Shown: piece after piece, positions 10,705 to 49,195 of the stretch
Layout: every line of letters begins with the position of its first letter
Numbering within the stretch: position 1 is the stretch's first letter
Assembly: GCA_039933235.1 (NCBI GenBank)
Contig: JBDTOL010000141.1
Location: forward strand, 1-56,406
DNA from: Spartobacteria bacterium
GTDB lineage: Bacteria > Verrucomicrobiota > Verrucomicrobiia > Chthoniobacterales > UBA10450
Direction of reading: 5' to 3'
Length of the DNA stretch: 56,406 nt
Notes under the pieces: generated by a model
Told to the model about the DNA's origin: nothing
The model's database searches: none
The model's input: only the letters and a program-made list of their open reading frames with translations
Translations under genes and position numbers: made by a program

Positions 10705-10776
10705 TGGGCGGTGAGGGAATCGAACCCCCGACCAACACGGTGTAAACGTGCCGCTCTACCGCTGAGCTAACCGCCC
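10705..10776 (-). tRNA. tRNA-Val (anticodon TAC)
   Basis: The reverse complement is GGGCGGTTAGCTCAGCGGTAGAGCGGCACGTTTACACCGTGTTGGTCGGGGGTTCGATTCCCTCACCGCCCA. It folds as a cloverleaf with anticodon loop TTTACAC and T-loop GGTTCGATTCC. CCA is not encoded. Confidence 0.9.
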
Positions 10777-22802: not shown

Positions 22803-23216
22803 TCAAATAGGGATGGCGGAGTGCTTGAGGACGGTCGCTTCCGACCGGCAGGCGGGGCAGATGCTATGGGTCGAACGCACGTCGTGGGTGCGTTTCAGGT
22901 ATTGCTCAAACGAGATCCACTCCTCGGCCAGATGCACTTTGCGGCACCAGGCACAAACCTGGATAAAGTTTTCCATCAGACGGAGTCGTCGAAAGACCCA
23001 GACCGTCGCAATCACAACCCCGGCCGCCACCAGCAGAACGGTCAACGTTTCGAACCAGAATTCCTGCGGACGCGCCGGGGTTTTCGGCGCCCCAAAAAGA
23101 TAGAAGGGAACGTCGACGTATTCGTCGAGCCAGAGAGTGAGGATGACGGCGGCAAAACCAAAAAGTTCGAGGCCAAGAATAACCTTCTCGTAAGGGCGCT
23201 GTTTCTGGATCTTCAT
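22803..23216 (-). CDS. small two-TM membrane protein with a C-terminal CxxC...CxxC zinc-ribbon-like tail
   Basis: 137 aa from [13 protein letters not shown] segments are [19 protein letters not shown] and [18 protein letters not shown], with tail VCAWCRKVH...[12 protein letters not shown]. Its ATG overlaps the purL TGA (ATGA at 23213-23216). Confidence 0.6.
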
Positions 23217-25564
23217 GATGTCGTAATCTCTGCCCGCACCGCCTGGGCGATCGCGCCATACCAATCGTCGTGCAGCGGATCGATCGGCCAGCCGAGGGTC
23301 TGGCCGGAAACCGTTACTCTGAGCTCGTTTCCTCCGACCGTCCCGAGGCGACGGGCTGGCACCCCGCGCCTTTGCGACGACTGCAGCACCGCGTCGACAT
23401 TTTCTGGCACGGTAGAGATGACAATCCGGGACTGGCTTTCGTTGAAGAGGATTTGGTCGAGCCGCATTTCTCTCCCGGCTGGCAAATCGATCTCCGCGCC
23501 TAACGAACCGGCGGGATTGAAGCACGATTCGGCCAGCGCCACGGCCAGGCCGCCCTCGCTGCAATCGTGCGCGCTCCGCACCTGGCCCGCACGGATCAAT
23601 TCGCGCAGCAGATTTTGCAGCGCGAGTTCGCGCTCGAAATCTAGGCGCGGCGGCCGGCCCGCCTTCATCCGGTGAATTACCTTGAGAAACTGGGACCCGC
23701 CCATCTCATCCCCGAGATCTCCCAGCAGGATGACAACGTCGCCGTCGGCCTTGAAAAACTGCGTCGTGATCCATTCCTCGCGCTCGATCAGGCCGACCAT
23801 TGCAACGGTCGGCGTCGGATCGACCACGCCGGCCGGGCTTTCGTTGTAGAGCGAGACATTCCCGCCGATCACCGGCGTGCCAAAGGCGCGGCAGGCTTCC
23901 GCGAGGCCTTCGACGGCCTCGCGCAACTGCCAGAAATTTTCCGGCTTGTATGGATTGCCGAAGTTCAGGTTGTCCGTCACGGCGAGCGGCGTCGCGCCGG
24001 AGCAGGCGAGGTTGCGCGCCGCTTCCGCGACTGCGATGCGGCCGCCCTCCCGCGGGTCGAGCCGGCAGTAGAGCGAATTGCAGTCTGTCGTGGCGGCGAG
24101 GAATTTATTCGCCTCGCGCAGGTGAAAAACCGCCGCATCCGAGCCCGGCCTCACGACTGTGCCAGTGCGGACCATGTGATCGTACTGCCGGTAAACCCAG
24201 TTTTTCGAAGCGATCGACGGATCGCGCAGCAATTGCCGGAGAGATTCAACCGCCGATTCCGCAGATGGCGCGGATATTCTCTGCAACAGATCCTCATCTG
24301 TGTCATCCGTGGTTGCCTTCCTCGCCTCGCGTGAGTAGAGCGGCGCCTCGTCGGCCAGCGGTTTGGCCGGGATCTCTGCCGCAGTCGAGCCGTTATTCAG
24401 GACGCGCATCATGCCGTCGCCGGTCACGCGCCCGATCTCGGCGCAGGGCACGTCCCATTTCTCGAAAATTCGCCTCACGACGTCTTCTTTGCCTTTGCGG
24501 GCGATGATCAACATCCGTTCCTGCGATTCGCTCAGAAGCGTTTCGTAAGGCGTCATGCCGGACTCGCGCTGCGGCACTTTGGCGAGGTCAATCTCGACCC
24601 CGGTCCCGCCGCGGCTCGCTGTTTCGCAGGTGGAACAGGTCAGGCCGGCTGCGCCCATGTCCTGGATCCCGGCGACCGCATCGGTCGCGAGCAGTTCGAG
24701 GCAGGCTTCGAGGAGCAGTTTCTCCTTGAACGGGTCGCCCACCTGCACCGCGGGGCGATCTTCCCGGGATGCTTCGGTCAATTCACGCGAAGCGAAAGCC
24801 GCGCCGGCCAAACCATCGCGGCCGGTCTCGGCGCCGACATAAAAGACCGGGTTGCCCACACCGCTGGCCGCGCCGCGCGCCAACTGCTCGTGGCGCAACA
24901 CTCCGAGGCAAAAGACGTTGACCAGCGGATTGCCCTCAAAACTTTCGTCGAAGTAAATCTCCCCGCCGATGGTCGGGACGCCGATGCAATTGCCGTAATG
25001 AGCAATGCCAGCGATCACACCCGCGAAGAGCCGGCGATTCTGCGCGATCTGCCGGGTGCGGCTCGAGTTGGTAGGGCGAGACTCCGTCGAGCCAGAGGGT
25101 GCGTTATCGCCCAGCTCGACAGAGTCTCGCCCTACCGACTCGTGATCTGTGATCGGCCCGAAGCGGAGCGAATTGAGCAAAAACTCCGGTCGCGCCCCCA
25201 TCGTGAAGATATCGCGAATAATCCCCCCCACCCCGGTGGCCGCGCCTTGGAACGGCTCGATCGCACTCGGGTGATTGTGGCTCTCGATCTTGAACGCCAC
25301 CGCCCAGCCATCGCCGATGTCGACCACCCCGGCGTTTTCCTCCCCCGCCTTGACCAGAATGTTCGGCCCAGTGGTTGGGAATTTCTTCAGCTCTTTCTTC
25401 GAGTTTTTGTAGGAGCAATGCTCGCTCCACATGACCGAAAAAATGCCCAGCTCGGTGAAGTTCGGTTCGCGTCCGAGGATCCTCTGGATCCGCTCGTATT
25501 CCTCGGGCGTAAGGCCGTGTTTCGCGACCACCTCAGCAGTGACTTTCGGTTCCGCAGCAGGCAT
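23213..25564 (-). CDS. purL: phosphoribosylformylglycinamidine synthase subunit PurL (FGAM synthase II)
   Basis: Blocks [26 protein letters not shown] and [21 protein letters not shown]. Start chosen at MPAAEPK (25564) by comparison with typical PurL N-termini. The ORF stays open across the PE-1 element at 25070-25136. Confidence 0.92.
25070..25136. repeat. PE-1 palindromic element, short variant, inserted in frame in purL
   Basis: Sequence ggtagggcgagactccgtcgagc-(21 nt)-gctcgacagagtctcgccctacc. The arms are the same as in the three intergenic PE-1 copies. Confidence 0.85.
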
Positions 25565-25725
25565 GGAGAACGCACGGTAAGGGCGAGCGGGCGGAGTGCA
25601 ATTCCGCAAAGGATTTTCGTTCTCGTCGCAATCGAAATGGCTAAGCTCCAGCGTGGACTTATCGACCATCGCCAACGTCGCGACCGCTCACCGTTCTGAC
25701 CGGTGTCGCTTTCGGGATAATCGAA

Positions 25726-38408: not shown

Positions 38409-39113
38409 ATGACGAAGTCCATCCCTCGCCACGTCGCCATCATCATGGATGGCAACGGCCGCTGGGCGAAAGAGCGCGGCCTGCCCCGGATCAAGGGTCA
38501 CGAGAAAGGCGCCGACGCGGTCCGGGCCTGCGTCGAAGGCTGCGGCGATCTGCGAATCGAGTTCCTCACCCTCTACGCCTTCTCCGCGGAGAACTGGCAA
38601 CGCCCCAAGAGCGAAGTCTTCGCGCTGATGAACCTGCTCGAGCGTTTCCTGAAAGAGAAGACGCCCGAGCTCGTGGAAAAAAATGTGCGGCTCCAAGCGA
38701 TCGGGCGCTTGACCGATCTGCCGGAGGCCTGCCAGAAGCAGCTCCACAAATCGATCGAGCAGACCGCCGGCAACCACGGGCTTACCCTAATCCTTGCGCT
38801 CAGTTATGGCGGCCGGCTCGAGATCATCGACGGAATTAAGAGTCTGTTTCACGCGATCGAGCAGGGGCACATCGATCCTGCGATGATCGATGTCGAGATG
38901 TTCAGCAAACATCTTTACACCCGCTACTATCCCGATCCCGATCTGCTCATCCGCACTTCAGGCGAGATGCGGATTTCTAATTTCCTCCTCTGGCAGCTCT
39001 CCTACACCGAGATGTATGTGACCCCGAAACTGTGGCCGGATTTCGGGAAGGAAGACCTGCTCGATGCGGTCAACGAGTTTGGCCGACGCCAGCGCCGCTA
39101 CGGCGGGGTCTGA
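38409..39113 (+). CDS. uppS: isoprenyl transferase (undecaprenyl diphosphate synthase)
   Basis: 234 aa. Blocks HVAIIMDGNGRWA, FSAENWQRP, IRTSGEMRISNFLLWQ. Confidence 0.93.
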   Translation: MTKSIPRHVAIIMDGNGRWAKERGLPRIKGHEKGADAVRACVEGCGDLRIEFLTLYAFSAENWQRPKSEVFALMNLLERFLKEKTPELVEKNVRLQAIGRLTDLPEACQKQLHKSIEQTAGNHGLTLILALSYGGRLEIIDGIKSLFHAIEQGHIDPAMIDVEMFSKHLYTRYYPDPDLLIRTSGEMRISNFLLWQLSYTEMYVTPKLWPDFGKEDLLDAVNEFGRRQRRYGGV

Positions 39114-39114
39114 T

Positions 39115-39200
39115 GGTGGAGCGAGACTCCGTCGAGCAAGGGAGAGCGGGTGCCTGCCTTAACGCTACTCTTTCCCAGCTCGACAGAGTCTCGCACCACC
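39115..39200. repeat. PE-1 palindromic element (86 nt) between convergent uppS and hemW
   Basis: Sequence ggtggagcgagactccgtcgagc-(40 nt)-gctcgacagagtctcgcaccacc. It starts 2 nt after the uppS stop. Confidence 0.85.
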
Positions 39201-39208
39201 GACAACCG

Positions 39209-40435
39209 CTAGATAAACGCTTCCGCAACGGAGTCGGCGAGAAAACGACCGGCGCGCGTCAGCACATAGCGCTCTTGCTGCGGCAGCATCAATCCTAGCT
39301 TAACAAACTCTTCAATTTCGTCCGGCCGATCGCTCACCCATGCCGCGGGTATCCCCCAGCTGGTCCGCAGGGAGAGCGCGATTGACTCCGCGCGCTTCAT
39401 TTGCGGAGTGAGAATTTCATCCCCGGTCGACGCCGTTTCACCTCGAAGCACACGATCGGTGTAGGCCCGATAATCCGAAACATTCTGCCAGCGACGGAGT
39501 CCAATGGTCGAGACGGCGCTTGGTCCCAGCCCGAGATAATCGCGGCCGCTCCAGTAGGCCCGGTTATGGACCGACTGGAAACCGGCCCGGGCATAATTGG
39601 AAACCTCGTACTGTTCAAAGCCAGCCGCGCCTAACAATTCACCGGCCAGATGGAAAAAATCCGCGTCTGCGTCCGCATCGACGCGAAATTCGCCGCGCGC
39701 ATGACGCAGAAAAAACTCCGTGTCCTCCTCGTAGGTGAGGCAGTAGGCCGAAACATGGTCCGGTCCCAGCGCGATGGCGCGGCACAAGGTCGTTTCCCAT
39801 TGCGCCAACGTCTGCCCCGGCAGGCCGAACATCAGGTCGATGTTCAAATTTTTGCAGCCGCTGCGGCGTAAAAGGTCGAACGACGCCTCGGCCTGCACCG
39901 CGGAATGTTCGCGGCCGAGCAGGCGCAGGAGCCCGTCATCAAAGGATTGCACCCCAAGGCTGATCCGGTTCACCCCCGACTCCCGCAGGAGCCGCGCTTT
40001 CCCTTCCGAGACGCTGCCGGGATTGGCTTCGAAGGTCCATTCGCGCAGCCCCGCGAGATCGAGCGACGCGCCGAAACCGCCGAGCAGTCTCTCCAGTTGC
40101 TTCGTCGTTAGGGCGGTGGGTGTTCCTCCGCCAAAGAAGATCGTTTCCGGTTGTAGCCGACGCCCCGTAGGCGACGCGGGAGTGGGTTTTTTTGTTCCAA
40201 GATCCGTCAACTCCCGCGCTTCGCAGAGCGAAGCGGCTACAGTTAAGCTTGCTCGCAGTTCGGCCAGGATCGCCTCGCAAAAGCGGGCCGCCTGGGCCGG
40301 GTCGGCCCGTTCCTTGTAGAAGGCGCAGTAGGGACAAATCCGGGCGCAAAACGGGATGTGCACGTAGATGTGCCGGGCCGCGCCGACCGCCGCCGCCGAG
40401 TTGTCAATCGCCTCCTCGCCCATAGAGTCCACCAT
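39209..40435 (-). CDS. hemW: radical SAM heme chaperone HemW (coproporphyrinogen oxidase-like)
   Basis: Radical SAM cluster motif HIPFCARICPYCAF, FFGGGTP, and an HemN-type C-terminal domain. It contains an in-frame repeat-derived segment at about 40150-40245. Alternative Met start at 40423. Confidence 0.88.
   Translation of the reverse strand: MVDSMGEEAIDNSAAAVGAARHIYVHIPFCARICPYCAFYKERADPAQAARFCEAILAELRASLTVAASLCEARELTDLGTKKPTPASPTGRRLQPETIFFGGGTPTALTTKQLERLLGGFGASLDLAGLREWTFEANPGSVSEGKARLLRESGVNRISLGVQSFDDGLLRLLGREHSAVQAEASFDLLRRSGCKNLNIDLMFGLPGQTLAQWETTLCRAIALGPDHVSAYCLTYEEDTEFFLRHARGEFRVDADADADFFHLAGELLGAAGFEQYEVSNYARAGFQSVHNRAYWSGRDYLGLGPSAVSTIGLRRWQNVSDYRAYTDRVLRGETASTGDEILTPQMKRAESIALSLRTSWGIPAAWVSDRPDEIEEFVKLGLMLPQQERYVLTRAGRFLADSVAEAFI
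40215..40242. repeat. PE-2 short palindromic repeat, copy d (inside hemW)
   Basis: Sequence cgcgcttcgcagagcgaagcggctacag, translated as TVAASLCEAR within HemW. A related palindrome tgtagccgacgccccgtaggcgacgcggg lies at 40152-40180. Confidence 0.7.
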
Positions 40436-41498
40436 CGACGCTCGCCTCTTCCGCTCAATCGCTTTTCTGCTCGCCGGCGTCGCGGGCGCCGCCGCCGCGC
40501 TGGCCCAGGAGATCCCGCCACCGCCCGCCCCGACACCCTCCGTGGTTTACCGGGCGCACAACGACGCCGCCATCCGGGATTATCGGGTCAATCCCGACCT
40601 GGTCAGGCGCATGACCAACGCGCTCGTCCTCGCGGTTACCCATCAGCCGGACGTGGCCAGCGCCTGGCGTTCGCTGGTCCAGCCTAACGACAGAATCGGG
40701 ATCAAAATCTCGGCTGCGGGTGGCGAACTTTTTACGACCCACCGCGCGATCGTCAACACCATCGTGGACGGTCTGGTCGCAGCCGGCCACTCGCGCCGCG
40801 ACATCATCGTTTGGGATAAGTCCCTCGGCGGGATCAGAGAAGCGGGCTATACCGGCGCCGAAGGTTATCAGCTCAAGTCGATCCCGCCGCGCGACGGATA
40901 CGACCCGAAGGCGACCGTCTCCGCGCCCTTCCTCGGCAACCTGATCTGGGGCGATTTCGAATACACCGCCGGCGGCGGGCAGATGCCGCTCCTGAGCGAC
41001 ACTGAGAACACGAGCAGCGTGAGCCATCTCTCGAAGATCGTGGCCAACGAAGTAACGAAGATCATCAACCTGCCGGTGCTGAGCGACAATGTGCGCAACG
41101 GCGTGGCCGGCTGCCTCTACAACGTCACGATCCCAAACCTCGACAATTGGCGCCGCTTTGGCGTGCCGCCCGATTTCGGCGCCTCGAGCATTCCGGAGAT
41201 CTACAGCGATCCGCACATCGGGCCGAAGGTCATCTTCAACCTGATGGATGGTCTCCTCGCCCAGTATGCGGGCGGGCCGGAATCGCAGCCCGGTTATTCC
41301 TTCCCCTTCGCCACGCTCTACGCGAGCAAGGACCCGGTCGCGATCGACGCCATCGCGCTACGACAGCTCGAGGAGTGGCGCGCGAAGAGGAAGGTGCCGC
41401 CGATCAAGCGCCTCGGCGCGCATGTGCAAGTGGCGGAACAATTCGGACTCGGGAACGCGAATCTCTCGCGCATCCAAATCCGTGACGTCGGCCCGTGA
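40368..41498 (+). CDS. DUF362 domain-containing protein (secreted or periplasmic)
   Basis: 376 aa with DUF362-type blocks (IGIKISAAGG, IVNTIVDGLVAAGHSRRDIIVWDK). The track start overlaps the hemW 5' end on the opposite strand by 68 nt, so one of the two starts is probably shorter. Confidence 0.75.
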   Translation: MCRAAPTAAAELSIASSPIESTIDARLFRSIAFLLAGVAGAAAALAQEIPPPPAPTPSVVYRAHNDAAIRDYRVNPDLVRRMTNALVLAVTHQPDVASAWRSLVQPNDRIGIKISAAGGELFTTHRAIVNTIVDGLVAAGHSRRDIIVWDKSLGGIREAGYTGAEGYQLKSIPPRDGYDPKATVSAPFLGNLIWGDFEYTAGGGQMPLLSDTENTSSVSHLSKIVANEVTKIINLPVLSDNVRNGVAGCLYNVTIPNLDNWRRFGVPPDFGASSIPEIYSDPHIGPKVIFNLMDGLLAQYAGGPESQPGYSFPFATLYASKDPVAIDAIALRQLEEWRAKRKVPPIKRLGAHVQVAEQFGLGNANLSRIQIRDVGP

Positions 41499-42433
41499 AA
41501 GAGATCCTCCAATCCGTCTCGCGATCGTTCTATCTCACGATCCGTTTCCTGCCGCGTCCGTTGCGCGAGCCGGTTAGCCTCGCCTACCTGCTGGCGCGCG
41601 CGACCGACACGATTGCAGACACAGCGACAATCCCCGCGTCCGCTCGCCTAACGAATCTGCGAGACTTCGCACGGGTCATCCGAGGCGAACTGGATTTCGA
41701 CACGGTCGAGGAATCACTCCGCACTTTCGCCGCGCAACAGACCGATCCGGCCGAGCGCAACCTGATCGAGAATCTGCGCGGCTGCATTGCGTGGCTGACC
41801 CGGATGGATCCGGCCGACCGGGCCGACATTCGCACAGTGCTCCAGACGATCGTGCGCGGACAGGAACTCGACCTGGAGCGATTTGGCGAGTCCGGCACAG
41901 TGCACTCCCTGCGCACCGCCGCTGAACTGGACGAATACACCCACCTCGTTGCCGGGTGTGTCGGCGAATTCTGGACGAAGCTGGGGCTGCGGCGCCTGCC
42001 ACCGTTCACGAACCGGTCGCCGGATGAAATGCAGCAACTCGGGATCGAGTACGGAAAGGGTCTGCAATTGATCAACGTCCTGCGCGATCGCGGCTCCGAT
42101 CTTAAGAATGGCCGCGACTACCTGCCGTCGGAAGAACTGGCGGGTGCGCCGGTCGCGGAAGTTTTCGCGCGCTGGCTCGATCGGACAGAGGAACACCTGA
42201 AGAGCGGCATCGACTACTGCGGTGCCCTAACAAATTGGCGGGTGCGTTACGCGACCGCGCTGCCGGCGTTGATCGGCGCCCGCACCATTGCGCTGCTTCG
42301 CGCCGCCGGACCCGGCTCGGCAGGAATCAAAGTCCCACGCGCGGAAGTGCGTCGCATCCTCGTTATCGGGGCGTGGGCAGCGCTTTCGACGCCCTCTCTC
42401 GAAGCGCTCTTCCTACGCCTCCTCGCGCGGTAA
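41495..42433 (+). CDS. squalene/phytoene synthase family protein (HpnC/HpnD-like)
   Basis: 312 aa with a GTG start overlapping the upstream TGA (GTGA). Blocks SFYLTIRFLP and two Asp-rich motifs ATDTIAD and NVLRDRGSD. Confidence 0.85.
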   Translation: MKEILQSVSRSFYLTIRFLPRPLREPVSLAYLLARATDTIADTATIPASARLTNLRDFARVIRGELDFDTVEESLRTFAAQQTDPAERNLIENLRGCIAWLTRMDPADRADIRTVLQTIVRGQELDLERFGESGTVHSLRTAAELDEYTHLVAGCVGEFWTKLGLRRLPPFTNRSPDEMQQLGIEYGKGLQLINVLRDRGSDLKNGRDYLPSEELAGAPVAEVFARWLDRTEEHLKSGIDYCGALTNWRVRYATALPALIGARTIALLRAAGPGSAGIKVPRAEVRRILVIGAWAALSTPSLEALFLRLLAR

Positions 42434-42447
42434 AGTTTCCCCTTCCC

Positions 42448-42532
42448 GGTGGAGCGAGACTCCGTCGAGCTTGGGAGTAGACGCGGCCGTGAGACAGTCC
42501 TCCTACCCGGCTCGACAGAGCCTCGCTCCACC
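42448..42532. repeat. PE-1 palindromic element (85 nt)
   Basis: Sequence ggtggagcgagactccgtcgagc-(39 nt)-gctcgacagagcctcgctccacc. It lies 15 nt after the stop of the squalene-synthase-like gene. Confidence 0.85.
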
Positions 42533-42605: not shown

Positions 42606-43949
42606 ATGAAAAGTGCTCGATCGATTCTCTTGCTCGTCGTTGTCGCCGTTTGCCTAACGACGCGGTCCCATTCTGCCGAACTAACCGCTCTCGTGGGCGG
42701 TCGCCTGATCGACGGTTTCGGCGGACCGCCTCTCGCGAATAGCGTCATCCTGATCGACGGCGAGCGCATCACCAAGATCGGCCAGGTCGGTACCCTGGCT
42801 GTGCCGAAGGATGCCGAGGTAATCTCGACCGAAGGGATGGACGTCCTCCCCGGCCTCTGGGACGCGCACGTGCACACCATGCTGCTCGGGCACAGCGACT
42901 ACGATCATTGGGACAAAACGTATCCGGCCCGGCTCGGCTCGGAGATCATGCCGGCGGCCGCGCATCAGTTACTCATGGCCGGCGTGACCAGCGCCCGCGA
43001 CCTGGGCGCGCCGCTCAAGGAGAGCCTCGAGGTGCGCGACCGGATCAACCGCGGCGAAATTCCCGGTCCGAATCTCTACGTCTCCGGCCCCTTCATCCAA
43101 CATGAGCCCTACCCGGGCACGGAGGCTTTCCGCTGGGGCGTAAAAGGAGCCGCGGACGGCCGCGCCAAGGTCAAGAAACTGGCCGAGGCTGGTGTGAACA
43201 TCATCAAGCTGATCGACCAGGACCAGATGACGATGGAGGAAGTCAAAGCCGTGGTGGACGAAGCGCACGCGAACAAGCTGCCAGTCGTCGCACATGGCCA
43301 TCGGCCGGAGGAAATCCGGCGCGGGCTCGCCGCGGGCGTGGACGATTTTGAGCACACCGGCCTTTCCACCGCGCCTGGTTACCCGGAAGACATCCTGAAA
43401 GCGATCGCGGAACGCACCGCCAAGATGAGCTTGGGCCCGCTCTTCTGGTGTCCGACGATCGAGGGGTTTCTCAATTACCAGGCGCTGATCGACAATCCCG
43501 AGCAGCTCGACGACCCGGCCTGGCAACTCGATGTGCCTAACGACATCGTGCAGGACATCAAGAAATCGATCCAGCACCCGGGGCAGCTCAGCTATTATCA
43601 GATCACACCGCTGCGCGCCGCGACGGTGAAGAAGAAGTTTCACCAATTGCAGGATGCGGGCGTGGTCATGCTGGTCGGGACCGACAGCGGGATCCCGATG
43701 AAATTTCACAGCAACTCAACCTGGCACGAGATGGAAGCCTGGGTGCACGAACTCGGGGTGGATCCGATGGCGACGATTCGGGCGGCGACCTACTGGCCGG
43801 CGGTGATGATGAAGGTGGACAAGGACTACGGCTCGATCAGCGAAGGAAAGTTTGCCGACATCATCGCGGTGAAAGGCGACGTCCTGCGCTACATCGACCT
43901 GCTGCAACGGGTCGACCTCGTGCTAAAGCACGGCCACCGCTACAAGTAA
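42606..43949 (+). CDS. amidohydrolase family protein (secreted)
   Basis: 447 aa with a signal peptide. Metal-binding motif WDAHVHT, a later HGH, and the typical C-terminal block GSISEGKFADIIAV. Confidence 0.85.
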   Translation: MKSARSILLLVVVAVCLTTRSHSAELTALVGGRLIDGFGGPPLANSVILIDGERITKIGQVGTLAVPKDAEVISTEGMDVLPGLWDAHVHTMLLGHSDYDHWDKTYPARLGSEIMPAAAHQLLMAGVTSARDLGAPLKESLEVRDRINRGEIPGPNLYVSGPFIQHEPYPGTEAFRWGVKGAADGRAKVKKLAEAGVNIIKLIDQDQMTMEEVKAVVDEAHANKLPVVAHGHRPEEIRRGLAAGVDDFEHTGLSTAPGYPEDILKAIAERTAKMSLGPLFWCPTIEGFLNYQALIDNPEQLDDPAWQLDVPNDIVQDIKKSIQHPGQLSYYQITPLRAATVKKKFHQLQDAGVVMLVGTDSGIPMKFHSNSTWHEMEAWVHELGVDPMATIRAATYWPAVMMKVDKDYGSISEGKFADIIAVKGDVLRYIDLLQRVDLVLKHGHRYK

Positions 43950-44058: not shown

Positions 44059-44910
44059 ATGGATATAAGGCTTCTTCTCGTCCCGTACGACTCCGGCCAG
44101 CGCAACGTGCGAATGGGGGCAGGGCCCGAACATCTCCGGTCGGCCGGCCTCGAGGGACAGCTCACCGCCCAGGGGCACCGGGTCGACCTCCAGGTGATCG
44201 AGCCCGCCTCAATGAACTGGCGGGCAGAAGTGCAAACCAGTTTTGAGCTAATGCGCGCAGTGGCGGAGCACGTGCGCGCCGCACGCTCCGAGGGTCGGTT
44301 CCCGATCGTACTCTCCGGCAATTGCCTTTCTGCGGTTGGCGTCATCTCAGGCCTCGGCGCCCAGACCGGCGTGATGTGGATCGATGCCCACGGCGATTTC
44401 AATACGCCGCAGACCACGATGAGCGGTTTCCTCGATGGGATGACCCTGGCAACGGCGACTGGGCGTTGCTGGCTGGAGCTGGCACGCAGCATCGAGGGCT
44501 TCGAGCCGGTCAAGGACAAGGCGGTCGTGATGTTCGGCACGCGCGATCTCGATCCGGGCGAAGGCCCGGCCCTGGCCCGCAGTGAGATCGTTAGGCTAAG
44601 CGCAGAGGCGAAGCTTGAGGAGATCGAGAAGGTTCTTCAGTCGATCCGCCCCACGATGGAAAGATTCTACGTCCATCTCGACATGGACGCGCTCGATCCC
44701 AAGGAAGGCCGGGCCAACGGCTATACTGCACGAGGCGGATTCTCCAGCGAGAAACTGCAGACGCTCCTCCGCGCGATCGCCGGGAATCTTCCGGTCGAGG
44801 CGCTCACCATCGCCAGTTACGATCCGTCCTATGACAGCGAAGGCAAAGTCTGCGCGGCGGCCTTGGAGGCTGCGGTGACCGTGCTCGGTGGCAGCCCGTC
44901 AGCACGCTGA
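44059..44910 (+). CDS. arginase-family hydrolase (arginase/agmatinase/formimidoylglutamase)
   Basis: 283 aa with Mn-binding blocks IDAHGDFNTP, GFLDGM, VHLDMDALDP. Confidence 0.85.
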   Translation: MDIRLLLVPYDSGQRNVRMGAGPEHLRSAGLEGQLTAQGHRVDLQVIEPASMNWRAEVQTSFELMRAVAEHVRAARSEGRFPIVLSGNCLSAVGVISGLGAQTGVMWIDAHGDFNTPQTTMSGFLDGMTLATATGRCWLELARSIEGFEPVKDKAVVMFGTRDLDPGEGPALARSEIVRLSAEAKLEEIEKVLQSIRPTMERFYVHLDMDALDPKEGRANGYTARGGFSSEKLQTLLRAIAGNLPVEALTIASYDPSYDSEGKVCAAALEAAVTVLGGSPSAR

Positions 44911-44915
44911 CCCTC

Positions 44916-45000
44916 GGTAGGGCGAGACTCAGTCGGGCCTGGGATAGCGGCAGGCGGCAAGATACTCCTCCTCCCATGCTCGACGGAATCTCGCACCACC
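44916..45000. repeat. PE-1 palindromic element (85 nt) between the convergent arginase-family gene and ligD
   Basis: Sequence ggtagggcgagactcagtcgggc-(39 nt)-gctcgacggaatctcgcaccacc. This copy is more diverged than the others. Confidence 0.8.
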
Positions 45001-45007
45001 GATCGGC

Positions 45008-46723
45008 CTAGCCCTCCGGATCGGCCGGGCTCTCGCGCTTCACTTCAGCCGGCTCTTTATCGTCGCGCAGCCCGAGGAAAACCGGCGCGCGCAATTTCGC
45101 GTCGCGCGTCCACTCCGCGAATTTAACCTGGCAAACGAAGACGGGGTTGAGCCAGGTGATCTTGCGCATCATGCCGGGGGTAATTCCCTGCGACCATTTC
45201 CCGGCGCTCTTGGAAGGCAGATCGGTAAAGGGACAATCGTCGCGTAGTTCGCGCTGAAATTTCTCATGCAAGCTCGCAAGCATTTTGGTGTCGAAGCCAG
45301 TCCCGACTTTGCCCGCGAAGAGCAGCTTCTTCTTCTCGTAATAGCCCACCAGCACCGCGCCGAAATATTTGCGCGCGCCGGCCGGCGGGGTGTAACCCCC
45401 GATGACGAATTCCTGCTCATTCTGGCACTTCAGCTTGATCCACGCGCCGCTCCGCCGGCCCGCTTCGTAGAGAGAATCGGCCCGCTTCCCGATGATTCCT
45501 TCCAAGCCGCGCCGTTTTACTTCCGCGAGGAGCGCTTTCGGATCGTCGCCGAGCTCGCCGGAGTATCGGATCGGTTCGCGCGCCCCCGCCGACAGCTGTC
45601 GCAGCATTTCCTTGCGCGTTGCCAGCGGAAATCCGACCAGGCTTTTGCCTTCCAGCTGGAGAAGATCGAAAACGTAATAGGAAAGCGGCGCGTCGTAGCC
45701 TTCCATCTCGCGCGCCTGCAACAACTGGAAGGAGGAGCGCCCCTCCTCGTCGAGCGCGACCACTTCGCCGTCGATCACGCACTCCGCGCAGGGCAGAGTG
45801 GTGAGCGCCTCCGCCACCTCCGGGAATTTCTTTGTCAGGTCGTTTTCATTGCGCGAGATCAACTTCACTTTCCCGTCGCTCTTCAATGCCAGCACGCGGA
45901 AGCCGTCGAACTTTAGCTCATAGATCCAGCCGCCTCCGGCCGGCGGCGTTTCGACCAGCTTCGGTTTCATCGGATGGATGAAGCGCGGTTTCCCCGCCGG
46001 CAGGGAATCAGGCAGCGCGACCGCGCTGTTACCTACTTTTGCGGCGCGCGGGACTTTTTTTTTAGGGCCGCGCTCCTTTTCCCCGATCGCCTTGCGAATG
46101 CGCGTACGCAGGTTCTCCTTCGCGCCGCCGTCCTCGCGATGGGATTGCCATTCCGCATCGCGATCCTGCGCGATCTGTTTCATCGTCCGCCCGGTCTTGG
46201 CCGATTCGTCATCGCGCTTTATTGAAATGGGCTTTACGTCGGCGTCGCTTTTCAAAAGCAGCCACTGGTTTTTGCCGCCATCACGCCGGGTGCGGATGAG
46301 GGCCCAGTCGCCCTTCAGCTTTTTTCCTTCGAGCACGAGATGCAGCCGGCCTTCCGCGAGCGCCTGGAGCGGTTTCTCACCGTGCACATAATAGTTGCCC
46401 TTGTCCCACACCATCACGGTGCCGCCGCCGTAGCTCCCCTCCGGGATGATCCCCTCAAAATCTTCGTAATCGATCGGGTGATCTTCCACCTCGACCGCGA
46501 GATGTTTCTCGCCCCGCAGCCAGGGAATCCCCTTGGGCACCGCCCAGGATTTTAGGACACCATCCATCTCGAGCCGGAAATCGTAGTGCAGCCGGCTGGC
46601 ATCATGTTTTTGAATGACAAACCGGGAGGCGCCCGCGACGCGTTTCGGGCGCGGTTTCTTCACGCCACTCGGCTCGGAGGTGACGGCGAAATTCCTTTTG
46701 CGTTTGTATTCCGTGAGTCCCAT
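45008..46723 (-). CDS. ligD: DNA ligase D, phosphoesterase + ATP-dependent ligase domains only
   Basis: Starts MGLTEYKRKRNFAVTSEP. PE domain FVIQKHDASRLHYDFRLE and adenylation motif YELKFDGFR. The extra 12 codons in the track ORF are the translated T-run of the upstream terminator. Confidence 0.88.
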   Translation of the reverse strand: MGLTEYKRKRNFAVTSEPSGVKKPRPKRVAGASRFVIQKHDASRLHYDFRLEMDGVLKSWAVPKGIPWLRGEKHLAVEVEDHPIDYEDFEGIIPEGSYGGGTVMVWDKGNYYVHGEKPLQALAEGRLHLVLEGKKLKGDWALIRTRRDGGKNQWLLLKSDADVKPISIKRDDESAKTGRTMKQIAQDRDAEWQSHREDGGAKENLRTRIRKAIGEKERGPKKKVPRAAKVGNSAVALPDSLPAGKPRFIHPMKPKLVETPPAGGGWIYELKFDGFRVLALKSDGKVKLISRNENDLTKKFPEVAEALTTLPCAECVIDGEVVALDEEGRSSFQLLQAREMEGYDAPLSYYVFDLLQLEGKSLVGFPLATRKEMLRQLSAGAREPIRYSGELGDDPKALLAEVKRRGLEGIIGKRADSLYEAGRRSGAWIKLKCQNEQEFVIGGYTPPAGARKYFGAVLVGYYEKKKLLFAGKVGTGFDTKMLASLHEKFQRELRDDCPFTDLPSKSAGKWSQGITPGMMRKITWLNPVFVCQVKFAEWTRDAKLRAPVFLGLRDDKEPAEVKRESPADPEG

Positions 46724-46742
46724 TCCCTTACGGTTCCATCCC

Positions 46743-46783
46743 GAAAAGAAAAACGCCACCGCGATCGCACGGATCGCGGTGGC
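46743..46783 (-). terminator. intrinsic terminator after the DUF892 gene
   Basis: Perfect 12-bp stem GCCACCGCGATC / GATCGCGGTGGC with a 5-nt loop (46755-46783). On the minus strand it is followed by GTTTTTCTTTTC. Confidence 0.75.
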
Positions 46784-49107: not shown

Positions 49108-49195
49108 GGTGAGGTGGCTGAGTGGTCGAAAGCAGCGCTTTGCTAAAGCGCCGTACCCCAAAAGGGTACCGAGGGTTCGAATCCCTCCCTCACCG
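49108..49195 (+). tRNA. tRNA-Ser (anticodon GCT)
   Basis: GGTGAGG acceptor stem pairing with CCTCACC. Anticodon stem-loop GCGCT-TTGCTAA-AGCGC, a long variable arm CGTACCCCAAAAGGGTACC, and T-arm GAGGGTTCGAATCCCTC. Confidence 0.9.

Follow-up and report, generated by a model that had tools for sequence, protein, structure and literature searches.

Repetitive extragenic palindromic (REP) sequences with a GTAG tag, and their dimers (REPINs), are reportedly mobilised by RAYTs, which are tyrosine transposases associated with REPs, a view credited to Nunvar 2010 and Ton-Hoang 2012. GTAG- and CGTC-tagged REPs, their HH and TT dimers and the RAYT 'REPtrons' were defined by Di Nocera et al. 2013 (PMC3733652), who equated the Rickettsia palindromic elements (RPEs) RPE-4 and RPE-6 with CGTC REPs. 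The same study described GTAG REPs and REP dimers that lie in frame within genes, with the highest numbers in the verrucomicrobium Opitutus terrae, and its Additional file 3 gives two GTAG-17 dimers in the O. terrae phosphoribosylformylglycinamidine synthase (PurL Oter_3711). We analysed a contig of a Spartobacteria bacterium (JBDTOL010000141.1, positions 1 to 56,406, here called the window) in which the purL gene contains a hairpin. We found that this hairpin is very probably a REPIN of a dispersed Verrucomicrobiota family, mobilised by a RAYT, inserted in frame, and tolerated and translated in a loop of PurL. A preliminary description of the window had already recognised a dispersed palindromic repeat inserted in frame in purL, and this was confirmed.

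Arm search, folding and arm comparison placed the core of the element at 25070-25136, as a tail-to-tail dimer of two 24-nt GTAG-tagged REPs that reads GGTAGGGCGAGACTCCGTCGAGCC-(19 nt)-AGCTCGACAGAGTCTCGCCCTACC. GGTAGGGCGAGACTCCGTCGAGC (25070-25092) pairs with 25114-25136 with one mismatch, and the best anatomy is near-perfect, with 24-nt arms at 25070-25093 and 25113-25136 around a 19-nt centre. REP unit 1 (GGTAGGGCGAGACTCCGTCGAGCC, 25070-25093, plus strand) is the exact family consensus and encodes GSTESRPT on the mRNA, while REP unit 2 (GGTAGGGCGAGACTCTGTCGAGCT, 25113-25136, minus strand) encodes VGRDSVEL. The centre between them (25094-25112) was found only in purL copies. In the fold, five extra base pairs outside the REP arms (CGAGT/ACTCG), which the other window copies lack, extend the palindrome to 25064-25142. 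The folding energy was -51 kcal/mol on the plus strand and -55 kcal/mol on the mRNA strand (z about -10). The 67-nt repeat had been said to share its inverted arms with three intergenic copies. Indeed, the arm recurred at 39115/39178, 42448/42510 and 44916/44978, and seven arm matches with up to three mismatches were found in the window as against none in 100 shuffles. Each of the four window elements is a long hairpin (-43 to -60 kcal/mol, z -4.5 to -10.5).

In an Rfam scan of the window the hairpin matched no family, and only two tRNA genes, at 10705-10776 (minus strand) and 49108-49195 (plus strand), reached the gathering score. An intrinsic terminator was ruled out, as no T-run follows the hairpin on either strand and the terminator scan made no call; neither a terminator nor a promoter role was supported. 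The arm core GCGAGACTCCGTC (window 25076-25088 and the other arms) presumably has the same sequence as the 3' end of the human Alu consensus, probably by coincidence, and could trip human-read filters.

The host ORF (23213-25675, minus strand) is the only long ORF at the hairpin site. From a Met at 25564 it gives a product of 783 aa plus stop, which was assigned as the small type of the FGAM synthase subunit PurL (purL, 23213-25564, minus strand) from the ORF, a PDB match, orthologues and synteny. The reading frame stays open across the repeat, as the preliminary description had stated, and the predicted 783-aa protein is read through the hairpin. PurL matched Thermus thermophilus PurL (PDB 3VIU) with an E value of 4.7e-205, with the unaligned stretch exactly between LRFGP and NRRLF; in the alignment the insert falls between 3VIU residues 130 and 132. 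For comparison we took the 120 best PurL relatives (P0001-P0120, 77-88% identity), from metagenome-assembled genomes (MAGs) named Chthoniobacterales, Spartobacteria or Verrucomicrobia. The orthologues carry Pfam FGAR-AT_linker/AIRS/AIRS_C, and the gene order (an Aminotran_3 aminotransferase, DUF4760, purL, a small ORF, purF, purM) is conserved. Against orthologues the window PurL shows 84-88% protein identity, while four-fold degenerate sites are only 0.53-0.61 identical, so that strong purifying selection acts on purL, which is no pseudogene; a pseudogene with a second functional copy elsewhere had been named as one finding that would overturn the idea. By these comparisons purL is an intact, syntenic and functional gene.

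Orthologues were also used to delimit the insert. Measured against the empty site of P0009/L119, the whole inserted block is 96 nt long (25052-25147, minus strand) and corresponds to residues 140-171 of P0001. In P0009, the closest orthologue without the insert, the site reads ATC ACG GGT AGC AAG GGG CAG ATC (loop ITGSKGQIAAN). Here 12 nt (GSKG) are replaced by the 96 nt, of which 67 belong to the REPIN and 11 and 18 to its two flanks, and the net gain relative to the closest insert-free orthologues is 28 codons. The earlier estimate of roughly 25 aa was therefore right about an insertion and short on its size. Orthologues lacking the repeat have no homologous segment. The loop had been thought short in other PurLs, and it is: for SLRFG..YGN, most PurLs have a span of 28 aa and baseline Chthoniobacterales one of 33, compared with 61 in the window PurL and up to 96 in some relatives. 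An AlphaFold2 model of PurL built with 60 close orthologues was poor (mean pLDDT 60.6, N-terminal half mostly below 50), and Foldseek confirmed only the overall PurL fold (3VIU, TM 0.59-0.65). The model puts the insert between a strand (127-135) and a helix (166-193), with residues 142-164 at pLDDT below 50. Because it was too poor to measure exposure, we infer from the 3VIU alignment and from natural length variation that the insert is exposed at the surface.

We searched one genome per species for the hairpin core. At least 118 loci from at least 56 assemblies were recovered, nearly all from Verrucomicrobiota and mostly from Chthoniobacterales. Among 122-124 copies the paired region begins sharply at GGT, with flanking positions pairing at 0.18-0.38 and arm positions at 0.87 or more, and the head position covaries in matched arm pairs (G-C 57, A-T 49, G.T 8, A.C 4). 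The unit is G-GTAG/GTGG-GGCGAGAC-TCY-GTCGAGCC, with an imperfect stem-loop, ....(((..(((...)))..))), at -6.6 kcal/mol. Each arm is taken as a GTAG REP because a GTAG/GTGG head with an imperfect stem-loop is the anatomy of a GTAG REP, and on its sequence the hairpin reads as a GTAG-tagged REP dimer, or REPIN. Arms were mostly found as tail-to-tail dimers (123 against 17 unpaired, with a search pattern that favours dimers). The spacers (15-45 nt) are unrelated between genomes and related within one genome, and the elements are 67-86 nt long. No target-site duplication was detected, since direct repeats of 2-8 nt at the element ends were no commoner than in shuffled flank pairings. Local multiplication of arms was seen in two places. 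In the purL of P0011 (L207 2429-2543) the downstream arm is triplicated in frame (STESRPT x3), and at L047 577-700, beside a RAYT, a single arm stands directly before a full dimer that is followed by partial arm ends.

In L047 and L058, loci from two MAGs, the repeat borders an ORF of about 150 aa on both sides. We found homologues of this RAYT ORF with the repeat on both sides at L088 and on one side at L117, so that a RAYT adjoins the repeat in 4 of 118 loci, from four MAGs, all of them retrieved only via the repeat. The RAYT ORFs carry LMPDHLHL (the HUH motif) and a tyrosine region, ESY..W.YI..NP. They match NCBIfam NF047646 ('REP-associated tyrosine transposase') with E values of 3e-21 and 2.6e-16, and E. 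coli TnpA-REP (PDB 4ER8) at 1.2e-8. The MAG that holds L047 (JBBPZS01) also contains the insert-bearing purL of P0011. As the RAYT is flanked by the repeat in several loci, including the MAG of P0011, the element is a REPIN of a REP-RAYT system, and the purL copy would itself have been inserted by a RAYT. At L088 (4488-4932) the RAYT homologue matches in two overlapping pieces in different frames, which suggests a frameshift arising from a pseudogene or an assembly error. The provisional 'PE-1' label and the RPE identity were thus replaced by a GTAG-tagged REP dimer with a cognate RAYT. An origin as a MITE (a miniature transposable element with inverted repeats) derived from a DDE transposon was ruled out, the family having no target-site duplication and a RAYT as partner enzyme. 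Membership of a described RPE family was ruled out on length (67-86 nt) and on the GTAG tag, the RPE consensus sequences themselves not being compared.

Other members of the family also lie in frame within genes. Copies were considered as candidates when an ORF stayed open for at least 60 codons on both sides. A single Pfam domain match spans the insert in PdxJ (L004), ArgJ (L028), Sulfotransfer_1 (L086) and COX15-CtaA (L010), and at L063 the repeat separates the PSCyt2 domain of a large protein from its PSD1 domain. Probable in-frame copies were also seen in a PMT_2 glycosyltransferase (L094) and in a peptidase M19 (L020). Intragenic in-frame copies made up about 5% of the 124 sampled. One MAG, JBKJNW01 (Chthoniobacterales ant_bin.387), has at least three among the five copies sampled from it, in purL (L205), the sulfotransferase (L086) and the PMT_2 glycosyltransferase (L094). 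The in-frame copies use different reading frames, and a stop codon occurs in only one of the six arm frames, as the TAG of the GTAG head. In-frame survival is feasible because the five other frames are free of stops.

We propose the following sequence of events. A single-copy RAYT transposase of the HUH/Y1 type would move the family by acting on hairpins of single-stranded DNA, and no target-site duplication would result. One member would have entered the codons that join strand LLNSLRFGP to the next helix, in the first PurM-like domain of PurL. It probably survived because its arms are stop-free in five of six frames and the net change preserved the frame. Translation of the element would then give PurL about 28 additional polar residues, which are probably disordered and lie in a loop tolerant of large changes in length.

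The other three copies in the window lie between genes, 1-14 nt past stop codons, two of the three between convergent genes, which is the usual kind of position for REPs. The first (39115-39200) exactly fills the gap between the stop codons of the convergent ORFs 38409-39113 (plus) and 39209-40435 (minus). The second (42448-42532) lies 14 nt downstream of the ORF 41495-42433 (plus) and upstream of 42606-43949 (plus), and the third (44916-45000), with partly degenerate arms, lies between the convergent ORFs 44059-44910 (plus) and 45008-46759 (minus). Their centres are about 37-38 nt long. They are more degenerate than the purL copy, with 2-4 mismatches to the consensus per arm, and their left and right arms differ in head variant. 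The purL copy is thus nearer to the family consensus than its three neighbours.

Thirteen of the 120 PurL orthologues carry the REPIN. DNA was available for ten of these, and in all ten the stem, of about 24 bp, is preserved (-62 to -90 kcal/mol). Flanks and 19-nt centre are common to P0001-5 and P0011 and were met at no other place in 1.3 Mb of related DNA; these six copies were therefore traced to one insertion. This comparison indicates that the purL insertion is old and has been passed on vertically in at least six lineages. A homologous centre can be recognised in P0069 and P0007 too, while P0010 and P0029 have long, different and unrelated centres.

Several observations weigh against the reading of the hairpin as a tolerated REPIN passenger. 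Decay would be expected of a pure passenger, but identity at four-fold sites is 0.83 in the arms and 0.58 elsewhere in the gene, and the purL copy is nearer to the family consensus than the intergenic ones. A neighbour-joining (NJ) tree of 117 PurLs with the loop masked was star-like and poorly resolved, with the insert-bearing sequences scattered rather than in one clade; it was unusable for counting gains and losses. The window has no RAYT gene. The NCBIfam scores of the RAYT ORFs (75.8 and 59.8 bits) are just under the curated cut-off of 80, and a Pfam search of the putative transposase, Y1_Tnp model included, gave no match even at E 10, so that the RAYT identity rests on NCBIfam and PDB. 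With a model of mean pLDDT 60.6 and TM 0.59 to 3VIU, the predicted exposure of the insert is based on the alignment and on length variation and not on coordinates. Among sequencing runs only DNA metagenomes contain the sequence, and their contigs break at the repeat. As the contigs of two such runs stop there, the junctions are neither confirmed nor contradicted by these runs. Contig depth at 25112-25135 in the two runs spiked to 110-490, as expected for a repeat.

Instead of going back to one old insertion, the purL copies might stem from several recent events of insertion or replacement at a favoured landing site, which would trivially explain the fresh-looking arms. We consider this unlikely, although it retains some weight. 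Close relatives do carry other repeat families at the same position. P0008 (purL L209 3547-3681) has a different GTAG-tagged REP dimer, GTAGAGGCGGCCGTGTCGGCCGC..., at -74 kcal/mol, and P0015, L125 and L131 have a repeat of the GTGGCGCAGGC/GTAGCGCAAGC type. Eight metagenomic PurLs (L125, L138, L140, L146, L149, L153, L161, L195) have strong hairpin inserts in the loop (z below -4.5), the flanks differ between groups of insert-bearing sequences, and both the scatter of these sequences in the NJ tree and the unrelated centres of P0010 and P0029 point the same way. On the other side stand the flanks and centre common to P0001-5 and P0011 and absent from every other copy in 1.3 Mb, the recognisable centre in P0069 and P0007, and the fact that the purL copy of the window differs from the intergenic copies of its own genome in both arm variant and centre. 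Nor did we find a landing-site motif common to the empty PurL loops, most of which have neither GTAG nor GTGG, nor any other shared target. Inserts are also present in PurL, though less often, near residues 435, 617 and 695, and these sites indicate tolerance rather than targeting. Because the empty loops share no motif and other, rarer sites exist, we favour a tolerance filter that would act on a high flux of REP insertions over targeting.

The length of this loop ranges from 5 to 55 residues among the 120 orthologues, and its contents are diverse. Unrelated hairpin repeats, several of them starting with GTAG, were seen in the same loop in other soil lineages (L125, L131, L138, L140, L146, L149, L153, L161, L180, L195 and P0015). 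Their peptides include VAADVSRR..SRLTSAAT, GSARASRA..TREGACAP and PSPRPSPPGEGE..PLPGGEGWGEGE, and their folding z reaches -10. The GTAGAGGCGGCCGTGTCGGCCGC repeat of P0008 also occurs in an unrelated MAG locus, L061 (7076-7100 and 3871-3888). The P0008/P0017 insert was rejected as a decayed copy of the window element, being a GTAG hairpin of another kind. The same loop contains a tandem heptamer, (CCGAAAT)n, in P0069, P0021, P0038, P0052 and P0059; it is read as NPKSEIRNPK, and in P0069 (L208, about 2425-2458) it lies directly upstream of the REPIN. The second site, near P0001 residue 617, is occupied in P0005, P0011, P0069, P0080, P0101, P0104 and P0114. Its peptides (VAGIGDPGY, VAGDAVPG...AGDGVP) resemble the peptides listed for O. 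terrae GTAG-17 REPs in Di Nocera 2013 (PMC3733652). Near residue 695, P0113 carries an insert of 49 aa that ends in RKLEARAT.

A second alternative starts from the persistence of the stem, and holds that it was co-opted as an RNA or DNA structure under selection, for instance through ribosome slowing, through mRNA half-life via a double-strand-specific RNase, or through RAYT binding. In the ten copies with DNA, four-fold sites were 0.828 identical in the arms, compared with 0.585 for the remainder of purL. With the null at 0.584 +/- 0.06, the arm value was reached by none of 5000 random site sets and by 9 of 4859 random codon blocks. These sequences were picked for recognisable arms, so that decayed copies were excluded by construction and the apparent conservation is inflated. 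Within the clade with shared flanks, identity was 0.94-0.96 in the arms, 0.77 in the centre, and 0.64 both in the 5' flank and at the third positions of the gene; however, the 3' flank, which lies outside the stem, is as conserved as the arms (0.94). The 24 nt downstream of the insert on the mRNA (window 25040-25063, mRNA AGCCGCACCCGGCAGATCGCGCAG), likewise outside the stem, are 0.94 identical in the six lineages, silent sites included. P0069 keeps the centre of the clade while its arms have changed on both sides together (GGTGGTGC / GCACCACC), and the stability of all ten folds and the better preservation of the purL copy relative to the three intergenic ones would also fit selection. However, the variable arm sites in purL copies are the polymorphic sites of the family itself, which also fits replacement or gene conversion, three arm mismatches in P0007 show that decay occurs, and many close relatives thrive without the insert or with a different repeat in its place. 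The persistence may be due to selection that acts on pairing, to conversion or replacement by another copy, or to re-insertion, and we regard co-option of the stem as rather unlikely. The same tentative grade applies to a wider proposal, in which the stem is kept by nucleotide-level selection and the PurL loop serves as a recurrent 'safe harbour' for unrelated REP families in several soil lineages. If that were true, intragenic REPINs would be long-lived, possibly regulatory residents and not accidents.

The segment could also be absent from the protein, either cut from the mRNA or bypassed by the ribosome, for which the gap in phage T4 gene 60 and the mitochondrial 'byp' hairpins are the comparison cases. 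A very stable hairpin within a coding region would suit such a mechanism. However, all 13 insert-bearing orthologues keep the frame and are free of stops despite varied centre lengths, duplicated arms and flanks, and the PdxJ, ArgJ, sulfotransferase and CtaA copies are likewise in frame and stop-free. Nothing would enforce either property on a skipped segment, which makes skipping highly improbable, and the inserted segment is most simply read as translated. A chance palindrome, an assembly artefact or a pseudogene has a negligible probability: the short-read contigs of the two metagenome runs, which break at the repeat, give no independent confirmation, but arm matches were absent from shuffles, nine further purL genes, assembled independently in different studies, have the same insert, and the ORF is intact and under purifying selection.

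With the hairpin read as an in-frame, RAYT-mobilised REPIN, 'extragenic' is not a strict term for REP elements. Copies of one REPIN family would regularly end up translated inside core enzymes in Chthoniobacterales, a soil group that is abundant but uncultured, and such insertions affect gene calling, protein-length comparison and structure prediction for MAGs of this order. The purL case offers what appears to be a dated, vertically inherited intragenic REPIN, usable for asking whether such elements are neutral, selected or refreshed by the transposase. It also marks the PurL loop as unusually permissive, which is useful in protein engineering.

We finally compared the family with described systems. 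Like the classical bacterial MITEs (Correia, ERIC, Nezha), it consists of small non-autonomous inverted repeats, for which occasional in-frame fusions are on record (PMC10969869). Classical MITEs derive from DDE insertion sequences with target-site duplications, whereas the window family has none and is partnered by an HUH tyrosine transposase. A likeness to RPEs (Ogata et al. 2000, via PMC3733652 and PMC10969869) had been drawn in the preliminary description. It is fair as an analogy, as these are also palindromic repeats in frame in many unrelated functional genes, to which they add a peptide; it fails as an identity, the element being a GTAG-tagged REPIN. RPEs are about 100-150 bp long, the short RPE-4 and RPE-6 are of the CGTC type, their hosts are alphaproteobacteria with an obligate intracellular life, CGTC repeats are not known to be linked to a RAYT, and no sequence relation to the window repeat is apparent. 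By this analogy, in-frame insertion would be a behaviour that the two share and not a sign of shared descent.

The closest match is with GTAG REP/REPIN-RAYT systems (Bertels & Rainey 2011, PMC3116915; PMC3733652). Common to both are the GTAG/GTGG head with an imperfect stem-loop, inverted dimers with variable spacers, a high copy number at gene 3' ends, a RAYT flanked by repeats, the absence of target-site duplication, and arms conserved across genomes while spacers drift. The differences are the host, here Chthoniobacterales, and a RAYT that scores just under the NCBIfam cut-off. No literature linking Chthoniobacter or Chthoniobacterales with REPs was found, and neither the window repeat nor its encoded peptides are among the entries in the accessible part of the supplementary lists of Di Nocera 2013 (PMC3733652). 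The suggestion that nothing equivalent had been described for such genomes did not hold, given the in-frame GTAG REP dimers reported by that study in O. terrae, PurL included. The O. terrae elements come from the same phylum and the same enzyme, as dimers that encode about 16-30 residues in frame in housekeeping genes. They belong to a different REP family (peptides VAGVADPGTGLSEAGY), and their host is a large single-chain PurL (1438 aa) with insertions at residues 878 and 1017, not in the strand-helix loop of the small PurL. The purL hairpin is therefore a known kind of event, an intragenic in-frame REPIN, in a repeat family not previously listed. Because the basic phenomenon was published in 2013, our result refines existing knowledge rather than changing it. 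The O. terrae cases were described without analysis of age, silent-site conservation or recurrent loop use, and what is modestly new and testable here is how old the insert is, how well its arms are conserved at silent sites, and that one PurL loop has been used again and again.

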